From assembly GCA_036867785.1 (NCBI GenBank), contig CP145419.1, forward strand, positions 434,001-498,000: a stretch of 64,000 nucleotides of DNA, given 5' to 3'. Shown here in pieces: positions 3,001-38,016 of the stretch. The stretch comes from Plasmodiophora brassicae (lineage: Eukaryota). How positions within the stretch are numbered: position 1 is the stretch's first letter; every line of letters starts with the position of its first letter. The notes beneath the pieces were generated by a model. That model saw nothing but the letters and a program-made list of their open reading frames with translations. It ran no database searches and was not told the origin of the DNA. The translations under genes and the position numbers were made by a program.

Positions 3001-6000
3001 CAGTTTCGCTGAGCAAACGGGCCAAATGCGAGCTCGTATCGCGAAACATGTAAGGGCATCTTGGTCACCATTGATAATCACGTCTTCTCAGATTTGTTGC
3101 ACAGGGTCCCGGATCTCCAGAGATCTCGCTGGACGATGGCCTTGAGGCACTGCGGTCATTTACTGCAGAATTGGAGGCCATGTACAGGACCAGCGATGCA
3201 TTGGGCAACGCAGAACGCCTGTTTGGATTGTCGGTGACGTCGTATCCCGAGTTGAGCGCGGCGCGTGACGCCTTACGTATGTGCGAGCCTATCTACGACG
3301 TGTTCGTTGACATGCAGAAGTGCATCAAGGAGTGGTCCCAGATGCTGTGGGTCGATCTGGACATGGAGGTGATTGACAAAGGCAGCGAGAAATGGCTTAC
3401 GCGCCTACAAGGGTTCGGTGAAGACATGCAGAAACTTCCCACATTCCGCAAAGTGCAGGAACGCATTGCCGGGTTCCGCGAGTCCATTCCTCTCATGTCG
3501 AACCTGAAGAACCCCGCTATCAGACAGAGGTAATGTGAAGTTCAATGTATTATAGGATGTCCCTGCGTGGTGACTGGTTTGCTGGCATAGGCACTGGGAC
3601 ACCCTGATGACGACCACTGGTGTGAAGTTTGACGTCAATCCGAAGACGTTCACCTTGGGCGTCATGTTCGAGATGAACCTTCACCGGTTCAAAGACGAGG
3701 TCGAAGAAATCACTATGTCGGCAACGCAAGAGGCTCGCATTGAAAAAGAGCTTGGCCGCATCGCGTCGATATGGTCTACCCGTTCATTCCCAATGTCGTC
3801 GTATCGATCCGACGACGGTAATGATGCTCTTCGGATCCTGCAAGATACCAGCGACGTTGTCGCCGACCTGGAAGACAGCGTCCTGAACCTGCAGACGATG
3901 TCCAACTCGCGGTTCATTGGCTGTTTCGCGGATGACGTCCGACGTTGGGAACGAGACCTTAACCACGTGATCGAGTGCATCGACGTGTGGATGCTCGTGC
4001 AGCGTAAATGGATGTATCTGGAAGGAATCTTCGTTGGCAGCGACGACATCCGAATGCAACTTCGTGATGCTGCCAAGGCGTTCGATCGCGTCGACACCGA
4101 TTTCAAGAAGATCATGGCCATGACGAGCAAAAACCCGAACGTCCTGGCAGCATGCAATGTTGACAGGCGTATCGATGACCTTCGGCGGCTGTCGACCGAG
4201 CTGGACCAGTGCCAGAAGAGCCTCAGTGACTACCTCGAGCGGAAGCGACTGGCGTTCCCGAGATTCTTCTTCATCTCCGATGACGAACTACTGTCGATCC
4301 TTGGCACTGCCGACCCCAACTGCGTCCAGGTCCACATGCTCAAACTGTTCGATAACGTCAAACAGTTGCGATTCGCTCGCGGCGACACTGTCGTTGTGGG
4401 AATGACATCCTCCGAAGGAGAGTCGTTCCAGTTCCGGTCGCAGGTGTCAACGTCGGGGGCCGTCGAGACTTGGATGACCGCAGTCGAGGAGGAGATGAAA
4501 CGGACCCTGCAGCAGATTTCCAAGGCAGCCGTCTTCAACTACCCAAAGATGAAGCGAGTTGACTGGATTCGTGACAACCTCGGGATGGTCGGCATCGTTG
4601 GCGGACAGATTTGGTGGACCTGGGAGGTGGAGGACGGCTTCAGGCAGGTCCGGCTTGGCAACAAGCACGCGATCAAGCACCTCGCTGCCAAACTCACTTT
4701 GCAGCTGTCCGATCTTGTCACCTGTGTTCGCGGCAGTGATCTCGACGGGCACATGCGCAAGAAGGTCAACACCATGATCATTATCGACGTTCACGCCCGC
4801 GACACCATCGACCGGTTCGTGCGAGACTCGATCCTAGACGCCCGCGAGTTCGACTGGGAATCCCAGCTGCGATTCTACTGGCGCAACGATGTCGACGACA
4901 TCCGCATCGCCCAGTGCACCGGCGAGTTCCGATACGGCTACGAGTTTATGGGCCTCAATGGGCGACTTGTCATAACGCCGCTTACCGACCGCTGCTACAT
5001 GACGCTGACGCAAGCACTAACGTTCCACATGGGTGGGTCACCAGCCGGCCCCGCCGGTACAGGCAAGACGGAAACCGTGAAGGACCTTGCAAAGGCCATG
5101 GCGCTGCTGTGCGTTGTTACGAACTGTGGCGACGGTCTCGATTATCGCGCCATGAGCTCGATCTTCTCGGGCCTGGTCCAGGCCGGCGCTTGGGGCTGCT
5201 TCGACGAATTCAACCGTATCGACCTGGAAGTGCTGTCGGTCGTTTCGACACAGTTGCGATGCATCCAGGCGGCGCTGCAGTCTGGAAAGGAACGGTTCGA
5301 GTTCAGCGGGCGCGAGATTCGTCTGCGACCTCAATGCGGGTTCTTCATCACGATGAACCCGGGTTATGCTGGCCGAACTGAACTTCCAGACAACCTCAAG
5401 GCCCTGTTCCGCCCCGTCACCATGGTTGTCCCCGACCTGTTGCAAATTTGTGAGATCATGCTGTTCAGTGAAGGGTTTTCGTCTGCGCGCGTCCTGGCTA
5501 AGAAAATGACGGTCCTGTACAAGCTGTCTCGCGAGCAGTTATCGAAGCAGTGCCACTACGATTTCGGGCTTCGTGCCCTGAAATCGGTCTTGGTCATGGC
5601 CGGTGCTCTGAAACGCGGTGCGCCAGAGTTCGACGAGAACCTGGTTCTCATGCGCGCGCTGCGTGATATGAACCTTCCCAAGTTCGTGTTCGATGATGTC
5701 CCATTGTTCCTCGGTCTGATCGGCGACCTTTTCCCTGGCATGGACTGCCCCCGCATCGGGCACCAGAAGCTGACGACTGCCGTTCACGATGATCTGGCGT
5801 CCCACGGCTATAAGCACAGCAACGAGGAACTGTTCCACCTGCAAGTGGACAAGGCCATTCAGTTGTACGAGACGATGCTGACGCGACACACCTGCATGGT
5901 CGTCGGTCCGACCAGGTAGGAGGCAACATTATTCAAATACGTGTACGTATGATCTCAGACCTGGACAATCAGGGGAGGGAAAACCGTTGTGATCGAGACG

Positions 6001-9000
6001 CTTGCGCGAGCTCAGGGGATCGCGTTCGGCATAACAACCAAGGTGCAGACGCTGAACCCCAAAGCGCAATCAGTCGCCGAGTTGTACGGTGTACTGGACC
6101 CGATGACGCGAGACTGGACGGACGGCATCCTATCTAAACTCTTCCGGGACATGAACGAACCGCTGAAAGGCGACGCTCGCGAGCAACGCTGGCTTGTGTT
6201 CGACGGTGATGTCGATGCGCTCTGGGTGGAGAACATGAACTCCGTCATGGACGACAACAAATTGCTAACGCTGCCAAACGGCGAACGTATCCGGCTGCAA
6301 GATCACGTTAAACTGCTCGTCGAGGTCGCTGATTTGCAACACGCTTCGCCTGCCACTGTCAGCCGTTGTGGTATGGTGTATGTCGACCCCAAAAACCTTG
6401 GGCATCAGCCGTTCCTAGGTATGGATCTCGCAAATCAAGGTTCCTGAATAACGTCGCTTCTAACCGACTTGCAGAGCGATGGCTGAATACGCGATCGGCA
6501 TCCAACGCGAAAGAAGTCGCTATTCTGAAGCCGCTGACCGCCAAATACGTCGATGCGTGTGTCCAATTCGCTTTGACAGGGATGACGACGTCAAACGTCA
6601 TCAGCGAAGGGGGCGCCTTGCGTCAGGTGATTCCACTGTGCGGGCTGAACCTAGTCGACCAAATGTGCACGCTGTACACCGCCGTCGCCGGCGCCGAACA
6701 ACTTGGTGACGACGAGGCCGTTATCGAATGTCTGCTCATTTTCACCATTGTCTGGTCGATTGGGAGCGCTGTTCTGGAGGGATCCCGTCATCGGCTCGAC
6801 CAGTTCATCAAGGGGCTGTCTGGACGGCAGTGTGCTGCCAACACGCCCAACAAGAGTCAGTTGCCGCAATCGTCACTCTACGACTGGTACTTTGATTTCA
6901 AAGCGAAACGATGGGTCACCTGGGCCGATGACGTCGACGACTACAAAGCGCCAGTACCCTTCCAGTTCTCTAAGATCCTGGTGCCCACGGTCGACACGGT
7001 CTGCTACACGTACATGCTGCGACGGTACTCTGAGGCGCAGCGCCCACTTCTGCTGTGCGGTTCTAGCGGTACTGCCAAGACTGTTGTCATCCAGAGGTAC
7101 ATGGACAATCTCGACCAGGACCGTTACTCCACCCTGAACATCAACTTTTCATCGCGGACCTCATCACTCGACGTGCAGCGCATCATCGAGGACAACGTCG
7201 ACAAGCGCACCGGGCACATCTATGGTCCACCGAGTGGCAAGAAACTGTTGGTCTTCTTCGACGATGTCAACATGCCCGTCGTAGACAAGTACGGCACGCA
7301 GCAGCCGATCGCCTTGCTCAAATTCCTGCTGGAACGCGGCGCCATGTACGACCGCGGCGGGGACCTGGCACTCCAGTCCATTCGCGATCTTCTCTATGTT
7401 GCAGCTATGGCGCCCCCTGGAGGTGGGAGGAACCCAGTTGATCCGCGATTCATTTCGCTATTCGCTGTTGTCAACGTCGCGTTCCCGTCGTCCGCCTCCC
7501 TCCACCACATCTATTCGTCGATCCTAATGGCACATGTCGCCGACTTCCCCGAGTCTGTCAAGGAGACCGCTTCGGCCATCACGAACGGAACGATGACGAT
7601 GTATGCGATGCTCGTGGAACGTTTGCCTCCGACACCGTCCAAGTTCCACTATATCTTCAATCTCAGGGACCTGTCCCGAGTCTTCCAGGGCCTTTGCCTG
7701 GCCCTTCCCGATACGGTCCGCGATGGGTACCAGCTCGTCCGCCTCTGGCGTAACGAGGCGCTGCGCGTGTTCCATGACCGACTGATATCCGACGAGGACA
7801 GGAAGTTGGTGCAAGAAGAGATCATCGGCAAGGTCGTCAAGGACACCTGGCCGGCGACGTTGAAGACCGTCATGCAGGACCCGATCCTGTTCGGCGACTT
7901 CCGCATGGTGAACAGCCCAACGGAATCTGCCCTCCGTATCTACGAGGACCTGGGCACGTATGAGTCCATTCGGACAATCTTCGATGGCGTCCTGCAGCGG
8001 TACAACGATGCCGCCCCAGGCAACAGCATGAACCTGGTCCTGTTCCAGGACGCGCTGGAGCATCTGACACGCATTCATCGCATCGTGCGAATGTCTCGTG
8101 GCAACGCACTCTTGGTCGGCGTCGGCGGCAGTGGAAAGCAATCACTAACACGTCTGGCAGCCTTCTGTGCCCAGATGTCGCTGTTCGAGATCCAGCTGTC
8201 CCGGGGATATGGCGAATACGAATTCCGCGAGGACCTGAAACGTCTGTACGGGATGCTTTCTAAGCAGCCGGTCGTGTTCCTGTTCACCGACGCGCACGTT
8301 GTCGACGAATCGTTCCTGGAGCTCATCAACAATATGTTGACGACGGGCATGGTCCCTGCGCTGTTCACCGACGAAGAGAAAGCGCCGCTGATCGAGTCGG
8401 TCCGCAAGGAGGTCGACAACGCCACCGCGGATGCCTGCTGGTCCTACCTCATCAACAAGTGTCGTGACAACCTGCACATCGTCCTTGCAATGTCACCCGG
8501 TGGTGACACGCTGCGTCGCCGCTGTCGGAACTTCCCCGGTCTCGTCAGGTATGCCAGGTTGCCGTTCCTTATGGTAACGCGTGGCTCATGCCCTTATAGC
8601 AATTCTGTGATCGACTGGTTCTTCGCATGGCCGGCCGATGCACTTCTCGCAGTGGCGAATCACTTCCTGGCGAACGAGGACCTCAGCACGGAGCACCGCG
8701 ACGCTGTCGTTCAGCACATGGTTCGCGTGCACCTGTCGGTCGTAACGTACAGCGCTCGGTTCCTGCAGGAGTTACGTCGGTACAACACGGTGACGCCCAA
8801 GAACTACCTGGACTACATTGGCAATTATCGTGCACAGCTACAGCAGTGCAGGCAGGAGAACGACAAGAAGGCGAAGCGGCTGGTTGGCGGTCTGCAGAAG
8901 CTGATCGAGGCCGCCGAGGCCGTCGACGCCATGCAGGAAGAGCTCCGCGAGAAGAAAGTCGTGGTTGATGCGGCCGCCGCCGAATGCGCCAAGATGATCC

Positions 9001-12000
9001 TGCAGATCCAGGAGCGCAGCGCTGAAGTCGAGGCGAAGAGGAAGTTCGCGAACGAGAAGAACGCCGAGCTGGAGGTCGAGGGCGAGCGCATCAAAGCCGA
9101 GAAGAAGATGGCCGAAGACGCGTTGGATGAGGCGCTGCCCGCGCTGGAAGCCGCTGCCGAAGCATTGAAGAACCTGAAGAAGGACGACATCACGAATGTG
9201 AAGTCGTACGCGAACCCGCCTGGCCCCGTCAAGGACGTTTGCCAATGTGTCCTGGAGTTGAAACCGTCCGGCAAGGAGGACCCTGCATCAGGGTGGGCAG
9301 GCGCCAAGTCGATGATGTCCGATCCCGCCTTCCTGTCGAAGCTGCAGAACTACCCGAGGGACGACATTACTGAGAAGCAGGTTGCTCGCGTCAAGAAGAT
9401 CCTGACGAAGAAGACGGACGCCAAGTCGGCAGTAACCGTCGAAAACCTAGAGCGCATCTCTGTTGCCGGCAAGGGCCTGCTCGTCTGGGTGCTCGCCATT
9501 ATCGATTACAACCGCGTCGCCAAGAACGTCGAGCCGCGTCGGAAGAAGGTCAAGGCGATGGAGAAGGAGATGGCGCAATCGCAGGCCGATCTACGTCAGA
9601 TTCGGCATGAGCTCGGCCTTCTCGAGGAGGAAATTGGCCGGCTCTCGCGAACGTATAGCGAGAAGAGCGAAGAAGCTACACAACTGACAGCTGAGGCCGA
9701 CAAGATGGCACAGTACTTGGCGGCCGCTTCCCAGCTTATCCAGGGTCTCGGCAGTGAACGCACCCGATGGTCCAAGGACAAGGAAGAACTCGTCGAGAAG
9801 AAGACGCGATTCGCTGGCGACTGTCTTCTGGCGGCTGCGTTCCTGTCCTACACGGGCGCCTTCACGTTTTCGTACCGAAACGAGATGATCTACAAGGACT
9901 GGCAGGAGGATTTGCGATCGCGGAAGGTCCCGCTGACAGACCCGTTCCGGCTGGAGTCACTGCTGACCACTCCTGTCCAAGTGTCGGCGTGGCTCAGCGA
10001 AGGACTGCCCGGCGATGAACTGTCGATCCAGAACGGCATACTGACGACGCAGGCGTCACGCTTCCCATTGTGTATCGATCCGCAGATGCAGGCGCTGAAG
10101 TGGATCAAGGAGAAGGAGACGCGCACGAAGAAGTTGACCGTGCAGACGTTCAACGATAGCGACTTCATCAAGTACCTCGAACTCTGCATCCAGTTCGGAA
10201 ACCCGTTCCTTTTCGAGGGCGTTGACGAGGACGTCGACCCGATCGTCAACCCGATCCTGGAGAAGAATCTGATCACGTCCGGGACCGGGTCGGCGGCCCG
10301 CAAGCAACTGCGTCTGGGCGACAAGCTCATCGACTGGGATGACGGGTTCCGTCTGTACATGGTCACCAAGCTCAGCAACCCGCACTACTCTGCCGAGCTG
10401 GCCGGTCGCGTCATGATCATCAACTACTCGGTCACGATGCAAGGGCTGGAAGACCAGCTCCTGAACGTTGTCGTCGGGTTCGAGCGCCCTGACCTGCAAC
10501 AGCAACGGGAGGAGCTCATCCAGACCATGTCGAAGAACAATATCAAGCTGGCGGAGCTCGAAGCCGTTCTGCTGCGCGAGCTTACTGAAGCGACCGGGAA
10601 CATCCTTGAGAATGCCGTCCTGATTGCCACGCTTGAGAACGCCAAGACCAAGTCGGTGTCGATCGCCGAGCAGCTGGAAGAGAGCAAGATCACGGCGCAC
10701 GAACTCGAGAAGGTGACCATGGGCTATCGGGCCGCCGCCAAGCGTGGCGCCATCCTGTTCTTCGCCATGGCCGGCCTGTCCAACGTCAGCAAGATGTACG
10801 AGTACTCGCTGTCGTCCTACCTGCAGCTGTTCGTTCGGGCGTTGTCGTCGTCGGATCGGGACCCGATGATCGCGTACCGCCTGCGAAACATCATCATTCG
10901 CCTAACGCGCATGGTCTACGACTACGTCTGCACTGGCATTTTCGAACGGCACAAGCTCATGTTCTCGTTCCAAATGACGACCATGATCATGGAAGGCGAG
11001 GAAGAAGGCAAGCTGGACAGGGACGAGGTCGACTTCTTCCTGAAGGGCAACCTGGCTCTGGAGGCGGACCTGTCCACGAAACCGGCCGAGTGGATATCGG
11101 CGCAGACCTGGCGCGACGTCCTGCGCCTCTCTGAACTGTCGGACCAGTTCGCTGGCCTACCCGTGCACATCGCCGACCATCTCGGCGAATGGTACGCATG
11201 GCAGGCCGGCGAAAGGCCCGAAGACGACCCGCTGCCGGCCGGGTTCGCCGGCGGAGCGCTGACCAAGATGCAGACCATGCTGGTCCTTCGTTCGTTCCGT
11301 CCCGATCGCGTCTACAGCGATGTGCGCCGGTTCGTGGTGCAGACCATGGGCGACCCGTACTTCGTGCAGCCGCCCGTGCTCGAGTTCGGTCGCATCTACG
11401 CGCAGTCGTCGTCGAAATCGCCAGTCGTCTTCATCCTGTCGCCCGGCGCCGACCCCATGATCGAACTCGACAAGCTCGCCGAGCTCCATGGCGTCAAGCA
11501 GGCGAACCGCTTCAGGCACCTCGGTACGTGGGAACGTGCCGGTTCAGTTTGTCAGGGGGTGGTGTCTCATCGATGCCTTAGCACTTGGTCAGGGTCAGGG
11601 CGAGATCGCGTTGAACCTGCTGAAGTCAGGGTCGTCGCGTGGGTTCTGGGTGGTCCTCCAGAACTGCCACCTGATGCCCTCCTGGCTGAAGACGCTAGAG
11701 AAGACTCTGGAGACCATGTCGGTCACGGCGGTTCACAACGATTTCCGCCTATGGCTGACAACGGACCCGACGCCTCGGTTCCCGCTGGGCATTCTGCAGC
11801 GGTCGCTCAAGGTCGTCACCGAACCGCCCGACGGCCTACGCCAGAACATCAAGAGTTCCTACTCGCGTATCACTGACGACATGCTGCGCGAATGCCCTCA
11901 CGCTGCGTTCCCATCGCTTGTCTACGTCCTCAGCTTCTTCCACGCCGTCGTCCAGGAGCGCAGGAAGTACGGCAAGATTGGCTGGAACGTGTCGTACGAC

Positions 12001-13320
12001 TTCAACGAGTCCGACTTCAATGTGTCGCTGCGCCTCCTGTCCATGTACCTGACGAAGGCGTTCGTCAACGGCGACGAGATGATCCCATGGGGGTCACTGC
12101 GTTACCTGATCGGCGAGGCCATGTACGGCGGGCGGGTCACCGACTCGTACGACCGTCGCGTGTTGATCACCTACCTGGACGAGTACATGGGCGACTTCCT
12201 GTTCGACGACTCGCAACCGTTCTTCTTCTCACGCAGCGGGTTCGACTACGTGATCCCGAACGTGGCGAACCAGACGGACGTGAAGTCGTACGACGCGTGG
12301 ATCCAGGCGATCCCGCTGGAGTACTCGCCCGAGGTGTTCGGCCTGCACAGCAACGCCGAGATCGGCTACTACACGAACGCGACCAAGGCAATGTGGCGCG
12401 ACCTGATCGACATGCAGCCGAGAGCGGTGACAGCGGGCGGAGGCGTGTCCCGCGAGGAGATGATCGCATCGGTGGCCGCCGACATCGAGCACAAGATTCC
12501 GGCCCCGTTCGACCTAGCCGTTGTCAGGAAGTCGCTGGAAGACGGCGCCGCCGCTCGCGCGAATCGCAGCGATGAACCGATTGCCCCGACCGCCATCGTC
12601 CTGCTGCAGGAGCTGGAACGGTGGAACCTGCTGGTCGTCAAGATGTCGACGTCGCTGGCGGAACTCCAGAAAGCGCTCCAGGGCGAGATCGGTATGTCCA
12701 CCGAGCTCGAAGCTATCGGCACGTCGCTGTTCAACGGGTACCTGCCGGAAGCGTGGCGCGCACTGGCGCCACAGACGAAGAAGATGCTGGGCAGCTGGAT
12801 CGAGCATTTCCAGCGGCGGTACGAGCAGTACCATCAATGGATCCTGACGGGGGACGACCCCGTGGTCATGTGGCTCAGCGGCCTGCACATTCCCGAGTCG
12901 TACCTGACGGCCCTGGTGCAAACCACGTGCCGGCGACGCAAGTGGCCCCTGGACAAGTCGACGCTGTACACAAAGGTGACCAGCATAACGGACGCCAGCC
13001 AAGTCACCGAACGCCCTGCCGACGGGTGCTACATCGACGGGCTGTACCTGGAGGGTGCCGGATGGGACCTGACGAAATCCTGCCTAACGCGCCCGAACCC
13101 GAAAGAGCTGATCGTGCGCCTCCCCATCCTGCAGGTCATCCCCGTCGAGCTGACCAAGCTGAAACTGGCGAACACGTTCCGGACGCCCGTCTATGTCACC
13201 CAGGACAGGCGGTCGGGCATGGGCGAAGGATGCGTCTTCGAAGCCGACCTGACGGCCAACGAGCACGCTAGTCACTGGGTCCTCCAAGGCACCGCCCTCG
13301 TTCTCAACACCGATGCATAA
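1..13320 (+). CDS. DNAH10: Axonemal dynein heavy chain, inner-arm I1/f alpha type (DNAH10-like); multi-exon, 5' part outside the window
   Basis: ORFs 449-2095, 3607-5919, 6366-11876 and 11488-13320 join through short GT-AG introns (e.g. 233-302, 382-433, 3050-3104, 8549-8599). P-loops GPAGTGKT (AAA1), GSSGTAKT (AAA3) and GVGGSGKQ (AAA4); motifs CFDEFNR and LCIDPQ; coiled-coil stalk. The C-terminus [15 protein letters not shown] resembles the DNAH10 ending. Confidence 0.93.
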
Positions 13321-15599: not shown

Positions 15600-17178
15600 A
15601 TAAGTCAGCGTCACGCACATATCACCCCCCCCCCTCCCCCTGTCGCGGAGAATGCTGCAGCACAGTGTCGGACGGATGCCGCCAGTCACGCAGGATGCAC
15701 ATCCAGGACTGTCGCCGGTCGGTTCTCCCTCCGCGGCTGGCGACAACGAACCAGGCCACGTACAGGTTGTGCACGCTTTCCAGATCTCATTGCCGGGCGC
15801 GTACTGCGTATGACCCCGCCTGACACGACTGGCATGCGTACTGGTTCGCACCGACCGCCATGCGGTACTGTTCAAGCGGGCATTGCGCGATCGCGAACGA
15901 CGTCGGCTTGGTGAAGGATGACACACCACCAGCACCCCCTCCGACGCTCGCTGTGATCGTGAAGGTAAATACCGACCCCGAGGCGGCAGCCAGCTTCCAT
16001 CCCGTCAGCGTTGCGACTCCGTTCGGCACCGCGTGCGATATCGACGCCCCAGTCACCGTGTATGCGCCCGTCGCCGGCGTCGACGATGGCGTCCCGCCGA
16101 TGACAACTTGCAGTGTCGACTCATCGGCGACGCGTTGCCCGAACTTGTCGACGGCCTGGACGACGACCGCGTTCCCGCCAGCATCCACGACGGGCGCCTC
16201 GCTGACCTGCAACGCGGCCGGTGTCGCCACGAGCCCGATCCCGCACAGGTCTGATGCGAAGTCGTTGCCGTATGACGATGCCGTATTTGCCGACCAGATG
16301 TTCGAGCCGTCCAGCAGGACGGAAATGCGATTGCAGTCCGACGACGACCTGGAGGAGGTGGACAGGAACAGGCCGGCGCCTTTGCTGGCCGTGTTGCCCG
16401 CGAAGGTCGACCCGGCGACAACGAGCGCGGACGTCGCGATCGAAGTCGTGACGGTGATACGCAGCGCGCCCGCACCCCGATTGTTCGTGAACGCGCACGC
16501 ACCGATCGTCATGGTCGCGCATCGCCCTGTAATGGAGCATGCGATCGTGACGGCCGGCGTGGTCGTCGCGCCGGTGAACGTCGACGAATTCAGGTGAGCG
16601 TTGGCGATGTCCGTGAGCTGCAGTGCGTCATTCGTGAAAGCCAGGCCGGTCACGGCGAACGAGTACGCGGCCTTCACGTTGAGGCAGGGCGACGACGACG
16701 GGCAGGTCACCGTGGCCGTATCCGATGGAGACGCGCGTGTCAACGTCACGGAGAACAGGCCTGTGTACGACCCGTCGGCGATCGTGACTGTCGTCGTGGA
16801 CGTGACGCCAAGCGACGGCAGGAGAGCGAGGGCGCCCGAGATGGCCCCGCACGGTGTCGATCCGAGCGACGCGAGACATGAGTCATGACGCATCGTTGCC
16901 GGTCGGCGACACCGATGCCGACCCGAAACACGTCTGCGCGCAGTATGGCAGCTGGTTGTTGGAGAGCGGCGGGGGCCACCGTGCCACACATGTCATGCCG
17001 GGCGGCAGCGCCCTACACGGTCGTACGAATCAATACATGAGAAGCGACACTGATAACTGCCGAACAGTTGACTGTGCGTTAAACGAGGAAGCGAATCGAA
17101 GATGGCGAACGGGACCTGCGTGTACCTGTTCGTTGCGCCGCCCACGTCCAGACTGGTCAGTCCGGTCAGCGTGTCGAA
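15600..17178 (-). pseudogene. 3' part of a disrupted surface-protein gene: LRR fragment, Pmp-like (GGA/FxxN) beta-helix repeats and Cys-rich (GCC2/GCC3-like) repeats
   Basis: 17074-17178 reads FDTLTGLTSLDVGGATNRYTQVPFAIFDSLPRLTH (LRR-like). ORF 15787-16989 has FTNNRGAGAL, FAGNTASKGAGL, WSANTASSYGND and CPLEQY...CQSCQAGSY. The Cys-rich pattern continues in another frame (KACTTC...CASC), implying a frameshift or decay. Boundaries are approximate. Confidence 0.6.
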
Positions 17179-17207
17179 CCTATGGTGATGCGAGGCATGG
17201 CATGTAA

Positions 17208-17387
17208 TGATTCATAATGGGAAGGCTAGCGACAGTGGCCGACCCATGAGTCACGACGACGTGACGCAACTGGTGCACAGTGGCGACCGTGCCACTGTGT
17301 GTGCGACGTCATGGGGACGTCGGCTTCCCCCACGTTAGATACACTGGGGACTTTCACTTTCCTAAGCGCTTCGAACTGCTTGAATCA
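17208..17387 (+). repeat. 5' LTR (180 bp)
   Basis: Starts TGATTCA and ends TGAATCA (7-bp terminal inverted repeat); identical by eye to 22154-22333. Confidence 0.98.
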
Positions 17388-17401
17388 GATTAAGAGTCCC
17401 A
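17388..17401 (+). promoter_or_regulatory. Primer-binding site complementary to the anticodon arm of tRNA-Lys(CUU) (half-tRNA primer)
   Basis: GATTAAGAGTCCCA directly follows the LTR. Its reverse complement TGGGACTCTTAATC matches positions ~27-40 of eukaryotic tRNA-Lys(CUU) as I recall the sequence. The usual TGG start of a 3'-CCA PBS is absent. Confidence 0.8.
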
Positions 17402-17408
17402 CTCTCTG

Positions 17409-18878
17409 ATGGCGACGATCCCAAGCATCCCAGCCGACCTGGCCCAAGCAGAGGCCGTGATCGCCCAGATAAGCGCTGCGCTGTCCGAGGCCCAGCGGCA
17501 GCAGGATCGGCTGGAGGCGGAGGTTGAACGTCTGCAAGCAGCGGCGGCCGGGAGCGGGACCGGCCAGCGCGAGAACGCGGCGCTCAAGGATCGTCTGGCG
17601 CGGCTGGAAGCTGCGCAGAAGGAAAGGCTGACGGGCCTGAAGGAGTCCGGCATCAAGATCTCCGTCCAGCTGAAGGGCAAGGACAATTACCTGGTCTGGG
17701 CGTCGTCGATGACGACGATGCTCAAGAAGTCGGGCCTGCAAAAGGCCGTGGAGCCCGCGACGCGCGGGCACAACGAAGAGCCGGCGTCGGAGCAAGAGAG
17801 GCTCCACGCAATGTACGCTATCAAGAAGAACGTGCATGAAGACGAACTTCCCTTGATACTCGACATACCCGACGACCGTCCGGACCTGGCGTGGAGCGCC
17901 ATCCAGACGGAGTATTCCGGCCAAACGGGCACGGACCTGGCGATGTTCGACATTCTTCTGTCAACAACAAAGCTTAAGGCGGGCGCCGACCTCACGGAGA
18001 CCAAGGCGCACCTGACGGCGATGCGCGACCTGGGCATCAACCTGGCCCGGGCGGATCCGAATCGGACGAAGACTGAGTCGGACATGGCGACGAAGGTCCT
18101 TATCTCGCTGCCATACACCGAGTACAAGGACTTAGTCAACGCGATGCTGCGCGGTCCCATCGGAGAGCTGACGCAAAGCAAGGTCCGCGCAGAAGTGCTC
18201 GCTCAGTACAAGCGGGGAGCGATAGAGCGCGGCGACGACGACAGCGGCTCCTCGGCGGCCATGACGACGACGGGGTTCTCCGGCAAGTGCTTCAACTGTG
18301 GAAAGGCTGGACACAGGGCGGCCGACTGCCGTAGCCGCAAGAAGACCGGCAACGCCGAGCGCGGCAAGGCCAGGAACGGCAAGCGGAAGGGGGGCAAAGA
18401 GGAAGGCGGTTCGGCGTCGATCGCGCTCCTGACGAGCCTGGCGGGCGTCGAGGACGCGCCGCGGAAGGGCATCCGCGACTTCATCGTCGACAACGCGGCG
18501 ACGTGCGGCCACGTGTCCACCCACAAGGCGCACTTCGAGGAGCTGGACTTCATCGCCGACAAGGACCGGCCGACGATCGGCGGCATCGGCCCGCAGCGAA
18601 TCAAGGTCCATGCCAGGGGCAACGTCCGCCTCAAGCTGGCTAACGGCAAGTCGATCACGCTGACAAACGTCGCGTACGCGCCAGATGCATCCGCGAACAT
18701 CTTCGCGGTGCGTTCGGCACTCCTGCAGCTCGGCAAGGACGGCAAGACGGGCGCGGAGCACCATGAGCAGACGCGCTCAGCCCGGCTCCTGGACGGGGCC
18801 GGAAGGACGATCGTGACCAGTACGGTCCGCAAGGGCCTGTACTACCTGGATCTGCACAAGGTCCAGGATTTCGAGTAG
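17409..18878 (+). CDS. gag: Copia ORF1: Gag (coiled coil, CCHC zinc knuckle) plus aspartic protease
   Basis: Zinc knuckle CFNCGKAGHRAADC; protease-like FIVDNAATCGHV and ITLTNVAYAPDASANIFAV; ends GLYYLDLHKVQDFE*. Confidence 0.92.
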   Translation: MATIPSIPADLAQAEAVIAQISAALSEAQRQQDRLEAEVERLQAAAAGSGTGQRENAALKDRLARLEAAQKERLTGLKESGIKISVQLKGKDNYLVWASSMTTMLKKSGLQKAVEPATRGHNEEPASEQERLHAMYAIKKNVHEDELPLILDIPDDRPDLAWSAIQTEYSGQTGTDLAMFDILLSTTKLKAGADLTETKAHLTAMRDLGINLARADPNRTKTESDMATKVLISLPYTEYKDLVNAMLRGPIGELTQSKVRAEVLAQYKRGAIERGDDDSGSSAAMTTTGFSGKCFNCGKAGHRAADCRSRKKTGNAERGKARNGKRKGGKEEGGSASIALLTSLAGVEDAPRKGIRDFIVDNAATCGHVSTHKAHFEELDFIADKDRPTIGGIGPQRIKVHARGNVRLKLANGKSITLTNVAYAPDASANIFAVRSALLQLGKDGKTGAEHHEQTRSARLLDGAGRTIVTSTVRKGLYYLDLHKVQDFE

Positions 18879-18923
18879 CGGGGGTGGCGCTGGCCGCCCC
18901 CGATCACGATCATCCAAACCAGC
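18866..18923 (+). promoter_or_regulatory. Predicted -1 programmed ribosomal frameshift signal (slippery heptamer plus stem-loop/pseudoknot)
   Basis: G_GAT_TTC at 18866-18872 in the ORF1 frame; 6-nt spacer GAGTAG; stem 18879-18888/18893-18902; GCTGG (18889-18893) is complementary to CCAGC (18919-18923). Confidence 0.8.
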
Positions 18924-21900
18924 CAGAAAACAAGAGCCCGAGCAAGGAGGAGCCGGCCGAGAAGAAGGAAACGCGCAAGCCCGCGGACGTAAAGCGCGAC
19001 AGAACGATATCATTGGCGGAGGCGCACGCGAGGTGCGGCCACCTGTCCACGATCACGATCAGAAAGGCAGTCAAGAACGGGGCAATCACCGGTCTCAACA
19101 TCGACGAGGCCGACCTGGCGAGCGACGAGGTGCCCAGGTGCAAGGTGTGCATCGAGGCCAACCTCAACCGAACGGCGATCCCGCGGAGACGGACACGGAC
19201 GGTGCTCTCGAAGCTGCAGATCGTCGGGGCGGACCTGCAGACGTTCGACACCAGGTCGCATGACGGAAAGACGTACATGGCGTGCTACGTTGACCACGCG
19301 ACTGGTGTCGGTGCCACGGTCAACCTGGCAAATAAGGGTGACCAGGAGCAAGTCGTCATGGACGTGCTGACCCGGCTCGAGGTCATGGGCGGCACACGCG
19401 TCGACACGTTCCGCGCCGACCAGGGCGGCGAGTTCACCTCGACGCGCCTGGCGAAGCTGCTGCGCGAGCGGGGAATCGCACAGGAGTTCAGCGACACGGA
19501 CCGCCCGCACCAGAACGGTCTCGCGGAGACGTTCGGTGGCAAGATTGTCAAGATGATGCGCGCAGCTCGTGTCCAGTCAGGCGTCCCGCGCAAGTACTGG
19601 ACCGAGAACGGGCGGCATCAGACGTGGGTAGCCAACCGCGTGCCGCTCCAACGACACGGCCACCGGACGACGCCAATCGAGGAACTGACGGGGGAACAAG
19701 CAGACCTGTCGAGGGCGATGCCATTCGGTTGCGAGGCGTGGGTCAGGATCCGGCGGCAAAAGAAGTGCAAGCTGGACGCCAGGGCCGAGCGCGCGGTCCA
19801 CATGGGGGTGTGCATCGACAAGAAGGCGTACCGGCTGCTGCTGTGGCACAGCCGCAAGATGATCGAGTCTTCGGACGTGGTCTTCTTCCCCAACGAATTC
19901 CCGTTCAAGGATGACAGCGGCTCCCGCGGAGAGGAGACCCGCAAGCGCCAAGAGACGGCGCAAGCCCAGCTGCAAGGAGGCGGCGATGGCGGTCAAGACG
20001 ATCGTCATGGGCAAGAAGACGACGGCGGTCGGGACGATCGCGTCGCACGACAAGACGACGGCGATCGAGAAGGTCGCGTCGGTCAACAACAGGGCGGCGG
20101 CCAGGATGGCCGCGCCATTCAGCGAGGCGGCGGCGGGGACGACCGTGCCAGGGAACTCGCAGGTGCCGGTGAAGACCGGCATGACGGACGCGATGAGCAA
20201 GCAGCTCAGGGCGGCGGGGATCGAGGACCTGCTGCTCAAGGCGTCCCTGAACCGAGGCGGTCGACGCGCATCAGAGGAGCGCCCGCTCGGTTTGCCGACG
20301 TGGACTACGACGGCGAAGCGCGGCGCCAGAGGGCGGCCAGCGCCAGGGCGGCAGCAGGGGCTGCCGACAACGTCGACCAGGCGGCAGCAGCAGATGCTGT
20401 CGACCACGACAACGAGGCCAACGACGACCCGGACAACGAGGACCAGGTCAACCAGGACGAGGCGCTCGAGAACGAGGACAGCTACCTGGAGGAGGAGGAC
20501 GCTGGCAACGCGTTCCTCACTGAGTACGAGGCCGAGAACGGGCCTGACCGGGACAAGTACCTGGCGGCGCAGGTCGAGGAGATGCAGTCGCTGAAGGAAG
20601 CGGGCACGTATGAGATCGTGGACCGCCCGACCGACGCTCAAGTGCTGCCAACAATGTTCGTGCACACGACGAAGCGCGACGAGGACGGGGAGATCACGCG
20701 CCACAAGGCCCGCTTCTGCGTCAAGGGATGCTGCGACAAGTTCAAGGGCCAGAAGGAGACGTACTCGCCGACGCTCCGGTATGCGACGTTGCGCATCATG
20801 GTGGCGCTGGCGGCCATGCTGGGCGTGGTCATCCACCAGCTGGACGTTAAGACGGCGTTCCTGAATGGAGACCTGCCGTACCCGATCTACTGTGAACAGC
20901 CGAAGAACTTCGTGGTCGGAGGACGCGGCAAGGTGATGAAGCTCCTGAAGGCGCTGTACGGCCTGGTCGAGGCGCCGAAGCTCTGGTACGATAAGCTCGT
21001 ATCAGTTCTGTTCGAAATCGGCTTCACAAGGGTGACCGGCGACCCGTGCCTGTTCGTTATGTTCACGACGAAGGACGGCCGCAGACAGATCACGATCCTC
21101 GGGGTGTTCGTGGACGACTTTATGATGTTTGGCACGGATCCCGACGTCATCGAGTACGTCAAGGCAGCGTTGGGCAAGAAGTTCAAGATGAAGGACCTCG
21201 GCATCGCGAGATGGATCCTGGGGATGCGCATCAAGCAGGAGGCAACGCGCATCACGATCGACCAACAGCAGTACGCCAAGGAGGTGGTCGCGCGGTTCCA
21301 GACCGACATCGACGAGGCAGCCGCCGGGCGCCGCTTGCGCGCGCCGGCCACGGCTCTGCCTGTCGGGCAGATTATGCCCCGGCGAACCGACGGTGTTCCG
21401 CACCAGCATGAGCGGTACCGCGAGGGCGTTGGTTGCCTGGCGCATCTGTCGATCGGCACGATGCCGACAATCACGCACGCGGTGTCGCAGCTGTCGCGTC
21501 ACCTGAACAACCCGGGTCGGGAGCATTTCGAGGCGATGCTCCACGTGCTGCGATATGTCCAGAACAACACGGATGTCGGCATCATCTACGCGAAGAGCAA
21601 GACACCGGCGACTGAATTCGACCCGATGGCACTGAACAAAGACAACGTGAAGGAGTCGGAGCCCCGGGCGGCGGTCGACTCGGACTTTGCGATGGACCCG
21701 GACACATCCAAGTCGGTCACGGGATTCATCGTCACGCTGATGGACGCAGCTGTGAGCTGGCGATCGAAGCAGCAAAGCCTGGTGGCGACCTCCTCAGCGC
21801 ACGCGGAGTACGTGGCGGCCAGCGAGCTGGCGCGTGAAGTAGTGTGGGTCCGGATGCTCCTCACCGACATCGGGTTCACTCTGACGGACCCGTCGATTGT

Positions 21901-22147
21901 GCTGGAGGACAACACGGCTGCCGAGCAGATGGTGAAGACGCTCGGGGTCACGGACCGGAACAAGCACATTCGGGTGAAATGGCACTATGTGCGAGAGTGC
22001 GTCCAGGAGGGACTGCTCCGGTTCGAGCGCGTGGCGTCAAAGAACAATCCGGCGGACGCGCTCACCAAGCCGACCACTCGTGAACCTGTGGAGGTCATGA
22101 AGAGGGCGGCCGGGATGGGTCGGGTGGACCTGTCGCTGGCGCCTTAG
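18869..22147 (+). CDS. pol: Copia ORF2: integrase, reverse transcriptase and RNase H, in the -1 frame relative to ORF1 (no nearby ATG)
   Basis: IN zinc finger AHARCGH...CKVC; DDE core ADLQ/RADQGGEF/QNGLAE; RT QLDVKTAFLNG, LYGLVEAP and VFVDDF; RNaseH VDSDFA, AEYVAA, EDN and NPADALTK. Confidence 0.95.
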   Translation, partial: FRVAGVALAAPDHDHPNQPENKSPSKEEPAEKKETRKPADVKRDRTISLAEAHARCGHLSTITIRKAVKNGAITGLNIDEADLASDEVPRCKVCIEANLNRTAIPRRRTRTVLSKLQIVGADLQTFDTRSHDGKTYMACYVDHATGVGATVNLANKGDQEQVVMDVLTRLEVMGGTRVDTFRADQGGEFTSTRLAKLLRERGIAQEFSDTDRPHQNGLAETFGGKIVKMMRAARVQSGVPRKYWTENGRHQTWVANRVPLQRHGHRTTPIEELTGEQADLSRAMPFGCEAWVRIRRQKKCKLDARAERAVHMGVCIDKKAYRLLLWHSRKMIESSDVVFFPNEFPFKDDSGSRGEETRKRQETAQAQLQGGGDGGQDDRHGQEDDGGRDDRVARQDDGDREGRVGQQQGGGQDGRAIQRGGGGDDRARELAGAGEDRHDGRDEQAAQGGGDRGPAAQGVPEPRRSTRIRGAPARFADVDYDGEARRQRAASARAAAGAADNVDQAAAADAVDHDNEANDDPDNEDQVNQDEALENEDSYLEEEDAGNAFLTEYEAENGPDRDKYLAAQVEEMQSLKEAGTYEIVDRPTDAQVLPTMFVHTTKRDEDGEITRHKARFCVKGCCDKFKGQKETYSPTLRYATLRIMVALAAMLGVVIHQLDVKTAFLNGDLPYPIYCEQPKNFVVGGRGKVMKLLKALYGLVEAPKLWYDKLVSVLFEIGFTRVTGDPCLFVMFTTKDGRRQITILGVFVDDFMMFGTDPDVIEYVKAALGKKFKMKDLGIARWILGMRIKQEATRITIDQQQYAKEVVARFQTDIDEAAAGRRLRAPATALPVGQIMPRRTDGVPHQHERYREGVGCLAHLSIGTMPTITHAVSQLSRHLNNPGREHFEAMLHVLRYVQNNTDVGIIYAKSKTPATEFDPMALNKDNVKESEPRAAVDSDFAMDPDTSKSVTGFIVTLMDAAVSWRSKQQSLVATSSAHAEYVAASELAREVVWVRMLLTDIGFTLTDPSIVLEDNTAAEQMVKTLGVTDRNKHIRVKWHYVRECVQEGLLRFERVASKNNPADALTKPTTREPVEVMKRAAGMGRVDLSLAP

Positions 22148-22153
22148 GGCGGC
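22146..22153 (+). promoter_or_regulatory. Short polypurine-tract-like sequence overlapping the pol stop
   Basis: AGGGCGGC lies immediately before the 3' LTR. Confidence 0.55.
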
Positions 22154-22333
22154 TGATTCATAATGGGAAGGCTAGCGACAGTGGCCGACCCATGAGTCAC
22201 GACGACGTGACGCAACTGGTGCACAGTGGCGACCGTGCCACTGTGTGTGCGACGTCATGGGGACGTCGGCTTCCCCCACGTTAGATACACTGGGGACTTT
22301 CACTTTCCTAAGCGCTTCGAACTGCTTGAATCA
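22154..22333 (+). repeat. 3' LTR (180 bp)
   Basis: Identical to the 5' LTR and followed by the TSD TGTAA. Confidence 0.98.
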
Positions 22334-22338
22334 TGTAA

Positions 22339-22462
22339 TGCCATAGATAGGTTGCATGGGAGCGTGGCCAGGTGATTCGACGCGAGCGTCAACGACAACA
22401 GGTTCGTCAACCGCGACAAATTCCTGATGCCGATGCTTTCTAGGCCGTAGTTCGACAAATCG
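22339..22462 (-). pseudogene. LRR-coding fragment upstream of the copia insertion (same broken gene as 15600-17178)
   Basis: Minus strand reads DLSNYGLESIGIRNLSRLTNLLSLTLASNHLATLP (LxxLxLxxNxL pattern). No intact 5' end is visible. Confidence 0.6.
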
Positions 22463-22879
22463 CTTTGGTGACATCGTCTCATACTGCACATTCCCGCGCC
22501 TGTTCGTCGGTTGCAATGTTGGCCTCGCTGCGCCTTGACTGCCTGAAGAATCCCATGACGGACAAGCGACGGCTGGCGTCTCCTGTCCACCACATGCCAG
22601 AGGCCATTAGGTCGTTTCGCATCAGGAGCTGCAAGCAGTTCACCCAAAGATGATGGGCGCATTTACAGAAGAGGAGCAGGTTGCGTTGTCTTCGTAGAGG
22701 ATGCGTTGGACCGTGGTCAAAAGGTCCCTGTTTTTTTTAGGCGCTTGGCTCCATGCCGGGGCGCCTGCGTGTCTGCGGACCGGGGAGCCGACCCGGTGCG
22801 GAAAGGCCGTGCAGCTGCAGCGCATCGGACCGTCAGCACTGGGGGGTGGACGAGTCGTCGTCGTTGGGCTGTAGGACCG

Positions 22880-23573
22880 ATGAACCTGTTCATCCTGTCG
22901 GCCTGCCCTCGGCAGTGTGCGCAGTGGATGTTTGACGTGCACATCGTGAAGATCATCACGGAGGCGATCCAGATGCTGTGCGTGGCGAAGCGCATGCGGG
23001 ACCCGGAGGCCGACCACTCGGGGCTGTACGGCGCGTCGCACGTCAACCACCCAGTCACGATCTGGGTGCGCGAATCCGCGGAAAACTATCGCTGGACGAT
23101 GGCGCTCTGCGACGCCATGCACGACGAATGGAAGTATCGGTTTGACCACGAGGAGTCCCGGGTTCACGGAGCGTATCAGAAGATGCTGCTGCTTGACCCG
23201 CCGCATGATGAGGCCTTTCCGCAGCGGTCCTTGACGAAATTCGCTCAAGCCATGCCCGAGGAGTACCGATGCGACGATTCCATCGAGGCCTATCACCGAT
23301 ACTACCAGAGCCCTGACAAGCAGCGCCTAGCGTCGTGGCGAAAGCGCGACCGCCCCGACTGGTAACTCCGCCTGCTGGACGTCGTCGTTGGCTAACCTGG
23401 GCAATAGGTTCGTCCCTGATCCAAGGTTCTTCGGGTTGAGACTCCGCCGTCTGGCCAAGGAGGGTAAGCGGCGCGCTCGCGACACCGACGTCAAATCCGA
23501 ACCTGTTGAAGATGGCATCGGGCCGGCGCCCATTGTCGAACGCTTGCGTCCTCGCAAGAAAAAGACCACATAA
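22880..23573 (+). CDS. Pyrimidine-dimer DNA glycosylase (T4 endonuclease V/DenV-related)-like protein of phage/bacterial type; predicted exons 22880-23361 and 23408-23573
   Basis: MNLFILS..P...AQ..D.H.VK...E..QML, Y..SH.NHP..IW.RES..NY.W and FAQAMP.EY...D..EAY..YY...K..A.W.KR.RPDW match the 'MNIF..DKHVVKM..HPSTIW..AMPD' family as I recall it. A 46-nt intron (GTAACT, branch GCTAAC, TAG) restores RPDWF and adds a tail ending RLRPRKKKTT. Confidence 0.72.
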
Positions 23574-36591: not shown

Positions 36592-38016
36592 TTATGACGC
36601 CTTGGCTTCGGCCAGAAGGTGCTGGATGCGGTCGCGGACGGCGCTGGCGAATCGGTTCGGGTCCGCGTCGTCCTGGTCGACATCGGGGGTCCTGAACGCC
36701 AGCGTCAGGCGGCCGGCCGCGGTGACGGCCATGCACTGCCGGAGGTTGATGGGCGGCGTGTGAAGTACCGGGACGACTTCGTCGACGACCCGGGATCCGT
36801 ATCGGGGCTGGATCGGGACGACCCCGAGATTGGACAGGAACCCCATTGGCGCCTGATTCGTGTCCGGGCGCGTACGCGCGCCGACCACCGTGACGCCCAT
36901 GCTGGCCAGGCGTGCCATTGCGAACACGGTCCCGTCCGACAGCTGGCAGTGTATTGCCTCCCGGCACTGACGGGCCACCTGCCAAGGGTCGTCGCTCCGC
37001 TCGACCCGGATCCGCGTCGTCTGGACGTGGAATGACACGCGATCGGCAGGGATGCGCCCCGTCGGGTAACGACCTCGTAGATCCACTGGGCACAAACAGG
37101 ACGCTGGCCATGTGGCGCTTGACGGCAACTGCTCCATTACCTGCCGCGCCGAACACGTCATCAGTCGGATCTGTGTTCCGATAGGCAACCACACAGTGTC
37201 TACCAGGGCCATCAGGAGTGTTGTCATGGTGACGCCGTTGGCGCGCGCCAGTTGCACACGCGACTCGGTTTCCGATTGCGCCAGGGTCACAGTGGACCAT
37301 CTTGCCGATGATTCGGTGAAGTCGACGTTATCGGGCGGACGTAATGGCGTCGACTTCCAGCGAAGAAAGGCAAGGACGGGGTTGGCCAATCCCAAACCGC
37401 AGGCGAGCTTGAGGTAGGTGGACCAAGGGAGGTTCTGGGTCCACGAAGCCATCGCTTGCTCGATGAACGGAGGTACTGGCGTCGGCGTCGTGGACGGAGG
37501 CGCTTGCTCTGTGAGATGGCACAGGAGTTCGTGCATGAGGTGCGACAGGGATCTCCCATCGCCGACGGCATGCTCGGCGGTCAGCATCAACTCGAACGTA
37601 CAATTGCTGCCTTGTGACCCTGGGGCGACCAACGTTAGGCTCCACAGTGGCGACCCGATCTGATAGGCGCCCATGCTGTCCCAAACGTCTTGCCACGAGT
37701 CATCGTGTGCGAGCACGTGTCGGCCGCATCTGACTGGAAGTGTCTCCTTTACGACGAATTCGTCGTCGGCGTTCATGGTTGCTCGCAGCAACGGATGGCG
37801 TTGCTGTACGATCGTGACGGCGTTCGCCAGCATTTGATCTGTGAACATCTCCCCAATGATCCGCACAACGATGCCGACCCGTAAGGCTCCATGACGCTCC
37901 CGGGAGAACGTCATCATCCCGAGCTCTAGTGGGGGAATAGGGAGCGTTGTCACGTTTGCTGCCGGAGCAGACGTCGCCGTCGGAACCACTTTGTCGAACG
38001 ATAACCCGAACACCAT
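36592..38016 (-). CDS. CoA-dependent acyltransferase (condensation-domain/alcohol acetyltransferase/PapA5-like)
   Basis: QQRHPLLRA, catalytic EHAVGDGRS (HxxxDG), PVDLR and LSNLG. A probable in-frame 54-nt intron lies near 37140-37200. Confidence 0.82.
   Translation of the reverse strand: MVFGLSFDKVVPTATSAPAANVTTLPIPPLELGMMTFSRERHGALRVGIVVRIIGEMFTDQMLANAVTIVQQRHPLLRATMNADDEFVVKETLPVRCGRHVLAHDDSWQDVWDSMGAYQIGSPLWSLTLVAPGSQGSNCTFELMLTAEHAVGDGRSLSHLMHELLCHLTEQAPPSTTPTPVPPFIEQAMASWTQNLPWSTYLKLACGLGLANPVLAFLRWKSTPLRPPDNVDFTESSARWSTVTLAQSETESRVQLARANGVTMTTLLMALVDTVWLPIGTQIRLMTCSARQVMEQLPSSATWPASCLCPVDLRGRYPTGRIPADRVSFHVQTTRIRVERSDDPWQVARQCREAIHCQLSDGTVFAMARLASMGVTVVGARTRPDTNQAPMGFLSNLGVVPIQPRYGSRVVDEVVPVLHTPPINLRQCMAVTAAGRLTLAFRTPDVDQDDADPNRFASAVRDRIQHLLAEAKAS

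Follow-up and report, generated by a model that had tools for sequence, protein, structure and literature searches.

Among the Pseudoviridae, protease (PR) is encoded within Pol, and the coding region comprises one to three open reading frames (ORFs), organized as a single gag-pol ORF or as separate gag and pol ORFs (International Committee on Taxonomy of Viruses profile, PMC8515867). The Ty1/copia retrotransposon described here lies in a 64,000-nt stretch of Plasmodiophora brassicae DNA (GenBank assembly GCA_036867785.1, contig CP145419.1, positions 434,001 to 498,000 of the forward strand; hereafter the window, with positions counted from its first letter). In this element, PR closes the Gag frame, and integrase (IN), reverse transcriptase (RT) and RNase H (RH) follow in the -1 frame. 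Comparison with relatives, together with analogy to tested viral signals, makes it likely that programmed -1 ribosomal frameshifting joins the two frames at the PR/IN boundary.

Other Ty1/copia elements are arranged differently: Ty1 uses a +1 frameshift, Tca2 a stop codon, and copia splicing. For retroelements in general, -1 frameshifting is standard. In alpharetroviruses such as Rous sarcoma virus, PR forms the end of the gag frame, and pol is reached by a -1 shift. A 2003 survey of gag/pol recoding, as summarised in a passage of PMC5009743, found -1 sites mostly in animal elements.

The closest described shift signals occur in RNA viruses. In the frameshifting passages of PMC4737148 and PMC5009743, the umbravirus PEMV2 (pea enation mosaic virus 2) is described as having: the shift site G_GAU_UUU, 3 nt before a stop codon; the stop at the base of the stimulatory hairpin; and a tolerance for P-site mismatches, coupled to a requirement that the A-site tRNA re-pair. 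According to the same passages, frameshifting in vitro fell by 72% when the stop was changed to a sense codon, each of the three stop codons is effective, and viruses related to PEMV2 carry the stop directly after the shift site. A second example is the yeast totivirus L-BC, for which a passage of PMC8780742 gives GGAUUUU as the Gag-Pol slip site.

Results

The proposed frameshift junction

ORF1 and ORF2 of the element overlap by 112 nt (Table 1). The Pol_BBD domain at the end of ORF1 is the protease, an assignment based on the Pfam match and on the active-site loop FIVDNAATCGH, which can be aligned, column by column, to the hh-D-S/T-G-A-S/T-x-H loop of single-ORF copia polyproteins. With Pol_BBD assigned in this way, the frame break falls between PR and IN.

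The junction reads CAG GAT TTC GAG TAG. Within the overlap, G_GAU_UUC is the sole in-frame heptamer with a UUU/AAA A-site triplet. Following a 6-nt spacer, CGGGGGUGGC (18879-18888) pairs with GCCGCCCCCG (18893-18902) through nine Watson-Crick pairs and one G.U pair. The predicted fold has an energy of -23.0 kcal/mol (z -4.5), equalled by none of 200 shuffles. As background, the + strand of the window has only 11 positions at which a hairpin of at least 10 bp begins, and the pattern GGATTTY-NNN-stop occurs once on its two strands, among 7 + 6 GGATTTY sites. The features of the junction exceed chance expectation.

Two attributes of known programmed -1 frameshift signals are present here: an overlapping -1 ORF without a start codon of its own; and a stable structure within the range of 5-9 nt downstream of the slip site. 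The first ATG in the ORF2 frame, at 19277, lies 127 nt beyond the HHCC zinc finger of IN. The heptamer itself belongs to the documented non-canonical class G_GAU_UUU, with C rather than U as its last base.

The original prediction, made from the letters of the stretch, had named the TAG stop, an IN-RT-RH frame at -1 with no nearby ATG, the heptamer, the 6-nt spacer and the 10-bp GC-rich stem, and each was found in place. Its statement that GGAUUU(N) heptamers serve plant RNA viruses agrees with the PEMV2 site given in the frameshifting passages of PMC4737148.

In minimum-energy folds, a small hairpin also adjoins the 5' side of the slip site, with 7 bp in the window (18847-18865) and 5 bp in the relative L008 described below (124-136); this may be chance. 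Upstream hairpins modulate frameshifting in PEMV2 and SARS-CoV, as noted in a passage of PMC4737148.

Conservation of the junction in a split clade

Relatives of the element include split and fused forms. When ORF2 was used for searching, all seven relatives at 41-49% identity were proteins of 932-1079 aa without a Gag or PR domain, and the next five matches (26-34%) were 1242-1655 aa long, four of the five with Gag/PR domains. The RT-RH region gave the same picture: 12 of 12 non-self matches at 44-54% identity (640-1082 aa) lack Gag/PR domains, after which identity falls to at most 37%, a range that commonly yields fused Gag-PR-IN-RT polyproteins from plants, green algae and fungi. For RT-RH, a quick maximum-likelihood tree built from 15 split and 28 fused rows hand-picked from the search lists places the split rows on one branch with a support of 100 in the Shimodaira-Hasegawa-like approximate likelihood-ratio test (SH-aLRT). 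The nearest fused neighbours of this branch, among the hand-picked rows, include green-algal copia proteins (Haematococcus, Pleodorina; SH-aLRT 94). Besides this genome, the lineage has so far been seen solely in metagenome and read-archive assemblies.

The C-terminal ends of the Gag-PR proteins carry a shared signature. A search with ORF1 gave two relatives, which end in ...QDFQ and ...QDFA, as compared to ...QDFE in the window. A profile of these three sequences was then compared with 1.84 billion representatives of 50%-identity clusters, and the best 150 were examined; 47 of them extend to the protease C-end. The tripeptide Q-D-F (CAG GAU UUY) stands at this end in 25 of the 47, some of which are short fragments and may not all be separate lineages. 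Another 16 continue for at least 55 residues past the protease, as ordinary fused elements do. In the QDF group, the stop follows immediately (4 of 25), after one extra residue that is E, Q, A or C (19 of 25) or after four extra residues (1 of 25), which puts it 0-1 codon past QDF in 23 of 25. The residues preceding QDF are variable (HKV, HQS, AAI, ASS and others). An invariant terminal tripeptide beside a variable linker is the expected outcome of a nucleotide constraint on CAG GAU UUY.

Two Gag-PR/ORF2 pairs in the protein data have longest contigs of equal length, P0031 with P0005 (4677) and P0030 with P0006 (15278), and each pair probably lies on one contig. The pairing of a QDFC-stop end with an MLRG... 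start, and of a QDFQ-stop end with an MRGM... start, would be consistent with a -1 overlap whose start the gene caller placed at the TTG or GTG that the U-run and stop codon make up together.

At the DNA level, a metagenome scan returned 23 loci, of which L008 and L014 alone belong to the split clade; a viral-contig scan and two genome-contig scans gave no DNA of further relatives. Across the window, L008 and L014, CAGGATTT is invariant. L008, 61% identical to the window in integrase, reads CAG GAT TTT GTC TAA, followed after a 7-nt spacer by a 7-bp stem (GGGGCCG/CGGCCCC, 151-168, -14.5 kcal/mol); its PR occupies frame 3 and its IN frame 2, a relation of -1. L014 reads CAG GAT TTT CAG TGA, with a 6-nt spacer and an 11-bp stem (GGGGGUGGGUC/GACCCACCCCC, 86-111, -24.5 kcal/mol) equalled by none of 200 shuffles. 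Despite two further frame breaks in L014, its net protease-to-integrase relation is still -1.

All three stop codons are represented at the same position: TAG in the window, TAA in L008 and TGA in L014. The hairpin begins 0-1 nt past the stop in each of the three DNAs, adjacent to it as in the umbravirus cassette. The stems share GGGG/CCCC at the base. The next two pairs are G-C and U.G in the window, G-C and U-A in L014, and C-G and C-G in L008; read by eye across three sequences, these differences suggest a few compensatory changes.

Taken as a whole, the relatives retain the heptamer and hairpin, the stop beside them and the break between the frames. A comparison of this kind had been proposed as the check on the original prediction. 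The relatives lend support to its wider claim of a -1 shift at the PR/IN boundary that would yield abundant Gag-PR and a scarce fusion protein. Conservation of the split arrangement extends throughout a deep clade.

The more distant loci L001, L003, L004, L006, L009 and L010 are single-ORF. Frame breaks in L002, L013 and L017 lie inside integrase, and L018 (1300-1900) has a +1 protease/integrase relation without the motif; all four were set aside as decay or unrelated. L005 carries an in-frame stop at 1306-1308, about 460 nt upstream of integrase. The junctions of L018 and L005 may reflect decay or other recoding strategies.

Comparison with known recoding systems

The signal most like that of the element is found in PEMV2 and other umbraviruses, to which dianthovirus and luteovirus signals are related. 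By the descriptions in the passages cited above, the shared features are: a non-canonical GGAUUU-type site; a stop codon 3 nt on; and a hairpin, with the stop at its foot, 5-7 nt from the site. The placement of the stop directly after the site in some of these viruses recurs in the 4 QDF lineages without an extra residue. Two differences stand out from the same descriptions. In PEMV2, stimulation comes from a large, bulged hairpin that in addition pairs with the 3' end, in contrast to the short perfect GC hairpin of the element, for which no distant partner was sought; and the last heptamer base is U in PEMV2 and C in the window. Umbraviruses are plant RNA viruses unrelated to retroelements, making the resemblance one of analogy, not of homology or descent.

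L-BC, as characterized in the passage on its slip site, shares with the element the heptamer class, a capsid-polymerase fusion and a non-plant host. Unlike the element, it is a double-stranded RNA virus and shifts between capsid and RNA-dependent RNA polymerase. In its shift site and stop layout, the element converges on plant and fungal RNA viruses.

The protein layout has its counterpart in the gag-pro/pol arrangement of alpharetroviruses, in which protease is produced in Gag amounts and the remaining enzymes follow a -1 shift. In retroviruses, RT comes after the shift and IN last; the shift site, the stimulator and the family within Ortervirales also differ from those of the element.

Sequence authenticity and age of the insertion

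The public runs examined, all as assembled contigs, were four in number and came from four studies with four organism labels. All sampled words of the element are present in 20 public-run rows from 9 studies. In each of the four runs, an identical 4976-nt contig covers 17208-22153/22181 with 0 other letters and 0 gaps, and no inserted or deleted letter is reported at 18860-18925. The exact 489-aa Gag-PR protein is also recorded on three contigs of an independent assembly source. For practical purposes, the frame break is neither an indel nor an assembly error.

The original prediction had used the identical LTRs (long terminal repeats) to argue that an inactivating indel was less likely. That conclusion holds, by virtue of the relatives and of the identical sequence in independent read sets. 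The LTRs are indeed 100% identical, but they are weak evidence alone because they are only 180 nt long; it is the comparative evidence that carries the case.

The empty site is also present in run X2. One contig there passes straight over 5131 nt between 17200 and 22332, corresponding to the element (5126) and one target-site duplication (TSD, 5); this indicates that the insertion is polymorphic and recent. The same run contains a GT..AG skip of 5186 nt, from which it follows that the element inserted into a 55-nt host intron. The element is read as a Ty1/copia retrotransposon that was inserted recently and is probably autonomous.

The 55-nt GT..AG intron belongs to a + strand host gene (17163-17207, 22339-22350), with both empty-site and spliced forms in X2. 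GT..AG joints of 57 nt in the flanking gene, seen in X1 and X2 contigs, suggest the presence of RNA in those runs. Flank depth, not normalised, is about 300 in X2 and 0.3-13 in X3, a run with the organism label of the likely source; the insertion may have lowered expression of the host gene. In run X8, a 292-nt contig (depth 4.4) differs by 25 other letters and 25 gap letters over 17308-17578, the LTR end and ORF1 start, and looks like a diverged second family member in that organism.

Proposed mechanism

In the proposed mechanism, most ribosomes would initiate at AUG 17409 and terminate at UAG 18876. Their product would be Gag-PR, 489 aa long and composed of a capsid-like domain, the CCHC nucleocapsid knuckle and the protease. 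A minority would move back by one base at G_GAU_UUC, where tRNA-Asp occupies the P site and tRNA-Phe the A site. These ribosomes would be stalled by the 10-bp hairpin that lies 6 nt further downstream, and the stop codon at its base would probably aid the slip. Slipped ribosomes would read from CGA at 18872 onward, giving a Gag-PR-IN-RT-RH fusion of about 1579 aa (488 + 1091); the efficiency is probably a few percent. Because PR lies in the Gag frame before the slip, protease would be made in Gag amounts, and integrase and RT in small amounts.

Several points weigh against this proposal. The first concerns the kind of evidence: the frameshift is argued from comparison and from analogy to tested signals. 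The second concerns the heptamer. G_GAU_UUC departs from the canonical X_XXY_YYZ in that its first triplet is not XXX, and the P-site tRNA re-pairs poorly on it. The last base is C in the window versus U in documented sites and in both DNA relatives, and the table of known sites in PMC3500957 gives, in the part that covers this class, only GGAUUU A/U. As tRNA-Phe decodes both UUC and UUU, re-pairing with a final C should remain possible.

The third group of points concerns the relatives. Both L008 and L014 are damaged elsewhere, L008 by a break inside IN near 508 and L014 by the two breaks mentioned. The hairpin comparison covers three DNAs, whose stems were out of structural register in MAFFT alignments. 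In the remaining 22 QDF lineages, protein ends alone serve to deduce how the frames relate. Six of the 47 representatives (P0033, P0052, P0064, P0066, P0070, P0111) end nearby without QDF. In one of the 25 QDF representatives, P0035, on a 2087-nt contig, the Gag-PR frame runs continuously from QDF into integrase; this member is a naturally continuous variant, or else its U-run carries a sequencing error. Finally, contigs drop rare variants, so that a minor spliced or indel form could escape detection.

Alternative explanations

One alternative is that the frames are joined, or ORF2 expressed, by other means: a small intron at the junction; a non-AUG start or reinitiation; or a separate transcript. 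Splicing has precedent in Drosophila copia, where it regulates Gag and Pol. Frame-fusing GT..AG intervals of 47-164 nt exist on paper in all three DNAs, and host introns are short, at 55-57 nt. However, GTCCAG and GTAGCG would make poor donors in the window, and donor position shows no conservation. No joint was seen inside the element in any of the four runs, as against flank introns in two, although this is weak evidence given that contigs drop rare forms. An intron would moreover leave unexplained the invariant CAG GAU UUY, the stop fixed 0-1 codon on, and the spacing of the hairpin. For an alternative start, it can be said that gene callers begin ORF2 of several relatives at the junction (MLRG.., MRG.., MKG.., MGG..). 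These starts would nonetheless fit a TTG or GTG arising from the U-run and stop codon as read in frame -1, and in the window the ORF2 frame is without ATG until the one beyond the zinc finger. Collectively, these routes are unlikely.

A second alternative accepts the frameshift and changes its stimulator, from a plain hairpin to an H-type pseudoknot, as in the original prediction, or to long-range pairing. The pairing partner is present: CCAGC at 18919-18923 is complementary to GCUGG at the loop, and L008 has a complement, CCGG, to its loop at 182-185. Related viral signals rely on long-range pairing, as stated in a passage of PMC4737148. The proposed fold, however, stands at chance level. When the 60 nt downstream were shuffled, a complement to the window 5-mer appeared in 736 of 5000 shuffles and to the 4-mer in 2139 of 5000; for the L008 4-mer, the count was 1431 of 5000. 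L014 is without any Watson-Crick complement. By its geometry, the pseudoknot would consume the entire tetraloop and open a stem pair, leaving no connecting loops. With complements in 15-43% of shuffles and none in L014, the H-type pseudoknot finds no support, and a stimulator other than the plain hairpin is quite improbable overall.

It is also conceivable, as long as the frameshift is unproven, that the two-ORF elements are non-autonomous, making only Gag-PR and receiving integrase and RT in trans. No direct evidence speaks for this. In relatives at 41-54% identity, ORF2 keeps about 1000 codons open and the motifs of IN, RT and RNase H are conserved, and the maintenance of so long a conserved open frame across the clade requires selection on ORF2 translation. 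Dependence on enzymes supplied in trans is therefore very improbable.

The remaining alternative, in which a normally single-ORF element was inactivated by an indel in this copy or was wrongly assembled, is the least credible. In its favour, most Ty1/copia elements are single-ORF, including the six distant loci above, 16 of 47 representatives run on past the protease, P0035 is continuous, and 180-nt LTRs tell little about age. Against it, the break coincides with the slip site and hairpin, 23 of 25 diverged lineages have their stop at this same point between long intact ORFs, and the sequence recurs unchanged in all four independent runs and, as exact Gag-PR, in the three contigs of the other assembly source. 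The programmed -1 frameshift at a plain hairpin remains the preferred explanation for the junction.

Element anatomy and neighbouring features

The coordinates of the element and its features are collected in Table 1.

Table 1. Features of the Ty1/copia element in the window
Feature	Position	Strand	Details
Ty1/copia element, whole	17208-22333	+	5126 nt
TSD TGTAA, left copy	17203-17207	+	same 5 bases at 22334-22338
5' LTR	17208-17387	+	180 nt, TG...CA; 100% identity to 3' LTR
ORF1 read stop to stop	17394-18878	+	
ORF1, Gag-PR	17409-18878	+	489 aa; first ATG 17409; TAG stop 18876-18878
CCHC zinc knuckle (nucleocapsid)	18282-18332	+	PF00098; ORF1 residues 297-313
Protease beta-barrel domain	18480-18716	+	Pol_BBD, PF22936, E 2e-10
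Protease active-site loop DNAATCGH	18489-18512	+	aligned with ordinary copia loop
ORF2 open frame	18767-22147	+	-1 relative to ORF1
Slippery heptamer G_GAU_UUC (candidate)	18866-18872	+	in ORF1 frame
ORF2 after slip, IN-RT-RH	18872-22147	+	1091 codons; stop 22145-22147; Pfam rve, SH3_retrovirus, RVT_2
ORF1 stop codon TAG	18876-18878	+	3 nt past heptamer, at hairpin base
GC-rich hairpin	18879-18902	+	10 bp, loop GCUG; likely frameshift stimulator; -23.0 kcal/mol
Integrase N-terminal HHCC zinc finger	19025-19150	+	upstream of first ORF2 ATG
Integrase catalytic core	19253-19507	+	PF00665; ORF2 residues 163-247
Copia-type reverse transcriptase RVT_2	20606-21301	+	PF07727, E 3.6e-54; ORF2 residues 614-845
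RNase H region	downstream of RVT_2, up to 22144	+	
3' LTR	22154-22333	+	180 nt
TSD TGTAA, right copy	22334-22338	+	

The element is present as a single copy within the window. Its LTRs have the ends TGATTCA...TGAATCA and are flanked on both sides by TGTAA. With ordinary Ty1/copia elements it shares: direct LTRs bounded by TG...CA; the 5-bp TSD; the order capsid, CCHC nucleocapsid knuckle, PR, IN, RT and RH; and an RT of the RVT_2 type. Unlike them, it has PR in the Gag ORF instead of within Pol, recoding at the PR/IN boundary and, on the interpretation favoured here, a -1 shift. Membership in Ty1/copia stands because the PR-in-Pol layout is typical and not defining. The element is a true Ty1/copia member, and its recoding mechanism a variant of a known one.

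The Pfam domains of ORF1 are Retrotran_gag_2, zf-CCHC and Pol_BBD. A profile of ORF1 and its relatives matched the solved Copia virus-like particle protein 8vvw (E 2.8e-14); in this search of solved structures, only the capsid and zinc-knuckle parts of ORF1 were matched. Matches in the ESM Atlas were generic copia Gag-PR clusters only, and Rfam gave no match across 17100-22400 at E up to 1. In the split clade, the protease active-site loop takes the form D-[NSGTH]-[AG]-[AST]-x-C-G-H, one residue longer than the D-S/T-G-A-S/T-x-H of ordinary copia.

Between the 5' LTR and the ORF1 ATG there are only 21 nt (17388-17408); the primer-binding site must sit there or overlap ORF1. These bases show no resemblance to the usual primer-binding site for the 3' end of initiator methionine tRNA. 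No tRNA genes were found in the 64,000-nt window.

Elsewhere in the window, a dynein heavy chain gene at 419-13320 (+) is spread over four long open stretches, with DHC_N1, DHC_N2, AAA modules, stalk and C-terminal domain. A short way downstream of the element, 22559-23365 (+) has a weak, below-threshold match to a pyrimidine dimer DNA glycosylase (E 2.5e-4). An ORF at 36592-38127 (-) carries a PapA_C-like condensation domain (E 4e-8).

Discussion

The chances are about even that a deep Ty1/copia lineage shifted its Gag/Pol recoding to the PR/IN boundary and independently arrived at the G_GAU_UUY/stop/hairpin cassette of umbraviruses and a yeast totivirus, in an arrangement that is ancient, functional and undescribed. 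Searches of open-access papers turned up no account of a copia element that shifts by -1 at the PR/IN boundary or that uses this heptamer, although such elements could be listed in supplements, for instance those of copia surveys in diatoms and fungi. The layout is likewise not described in the frameshift passages of PMC2806351, PMC5445492, PMC11889832 and PMC3441728. The finding would mildly surprise recoding and transposon specialists and involves no new principle.

There are practical consequences for annotation. Gene callers and transposon annotators will label elements of this kind as broken or as two genes, and the Q-D-F-(x)-stop ending offers a simple marker by which to recognise them.

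For frameshifting itself, the retroelement would provide an independent natural system in which to ask why a stop placed at the hairpin's base aids the shift, a matter that the PEMV2 authors left open in the passage of PMC4737148 that addresses it. For the Pseudoviridae, the arrangement would represent a third recoding layout, beside the single ORF and the +1 shift or stop codon upstream of protease. Here, protease stoichiometry would be tied to that of Gag, which bears on the balance between particle assembly and protease activation.

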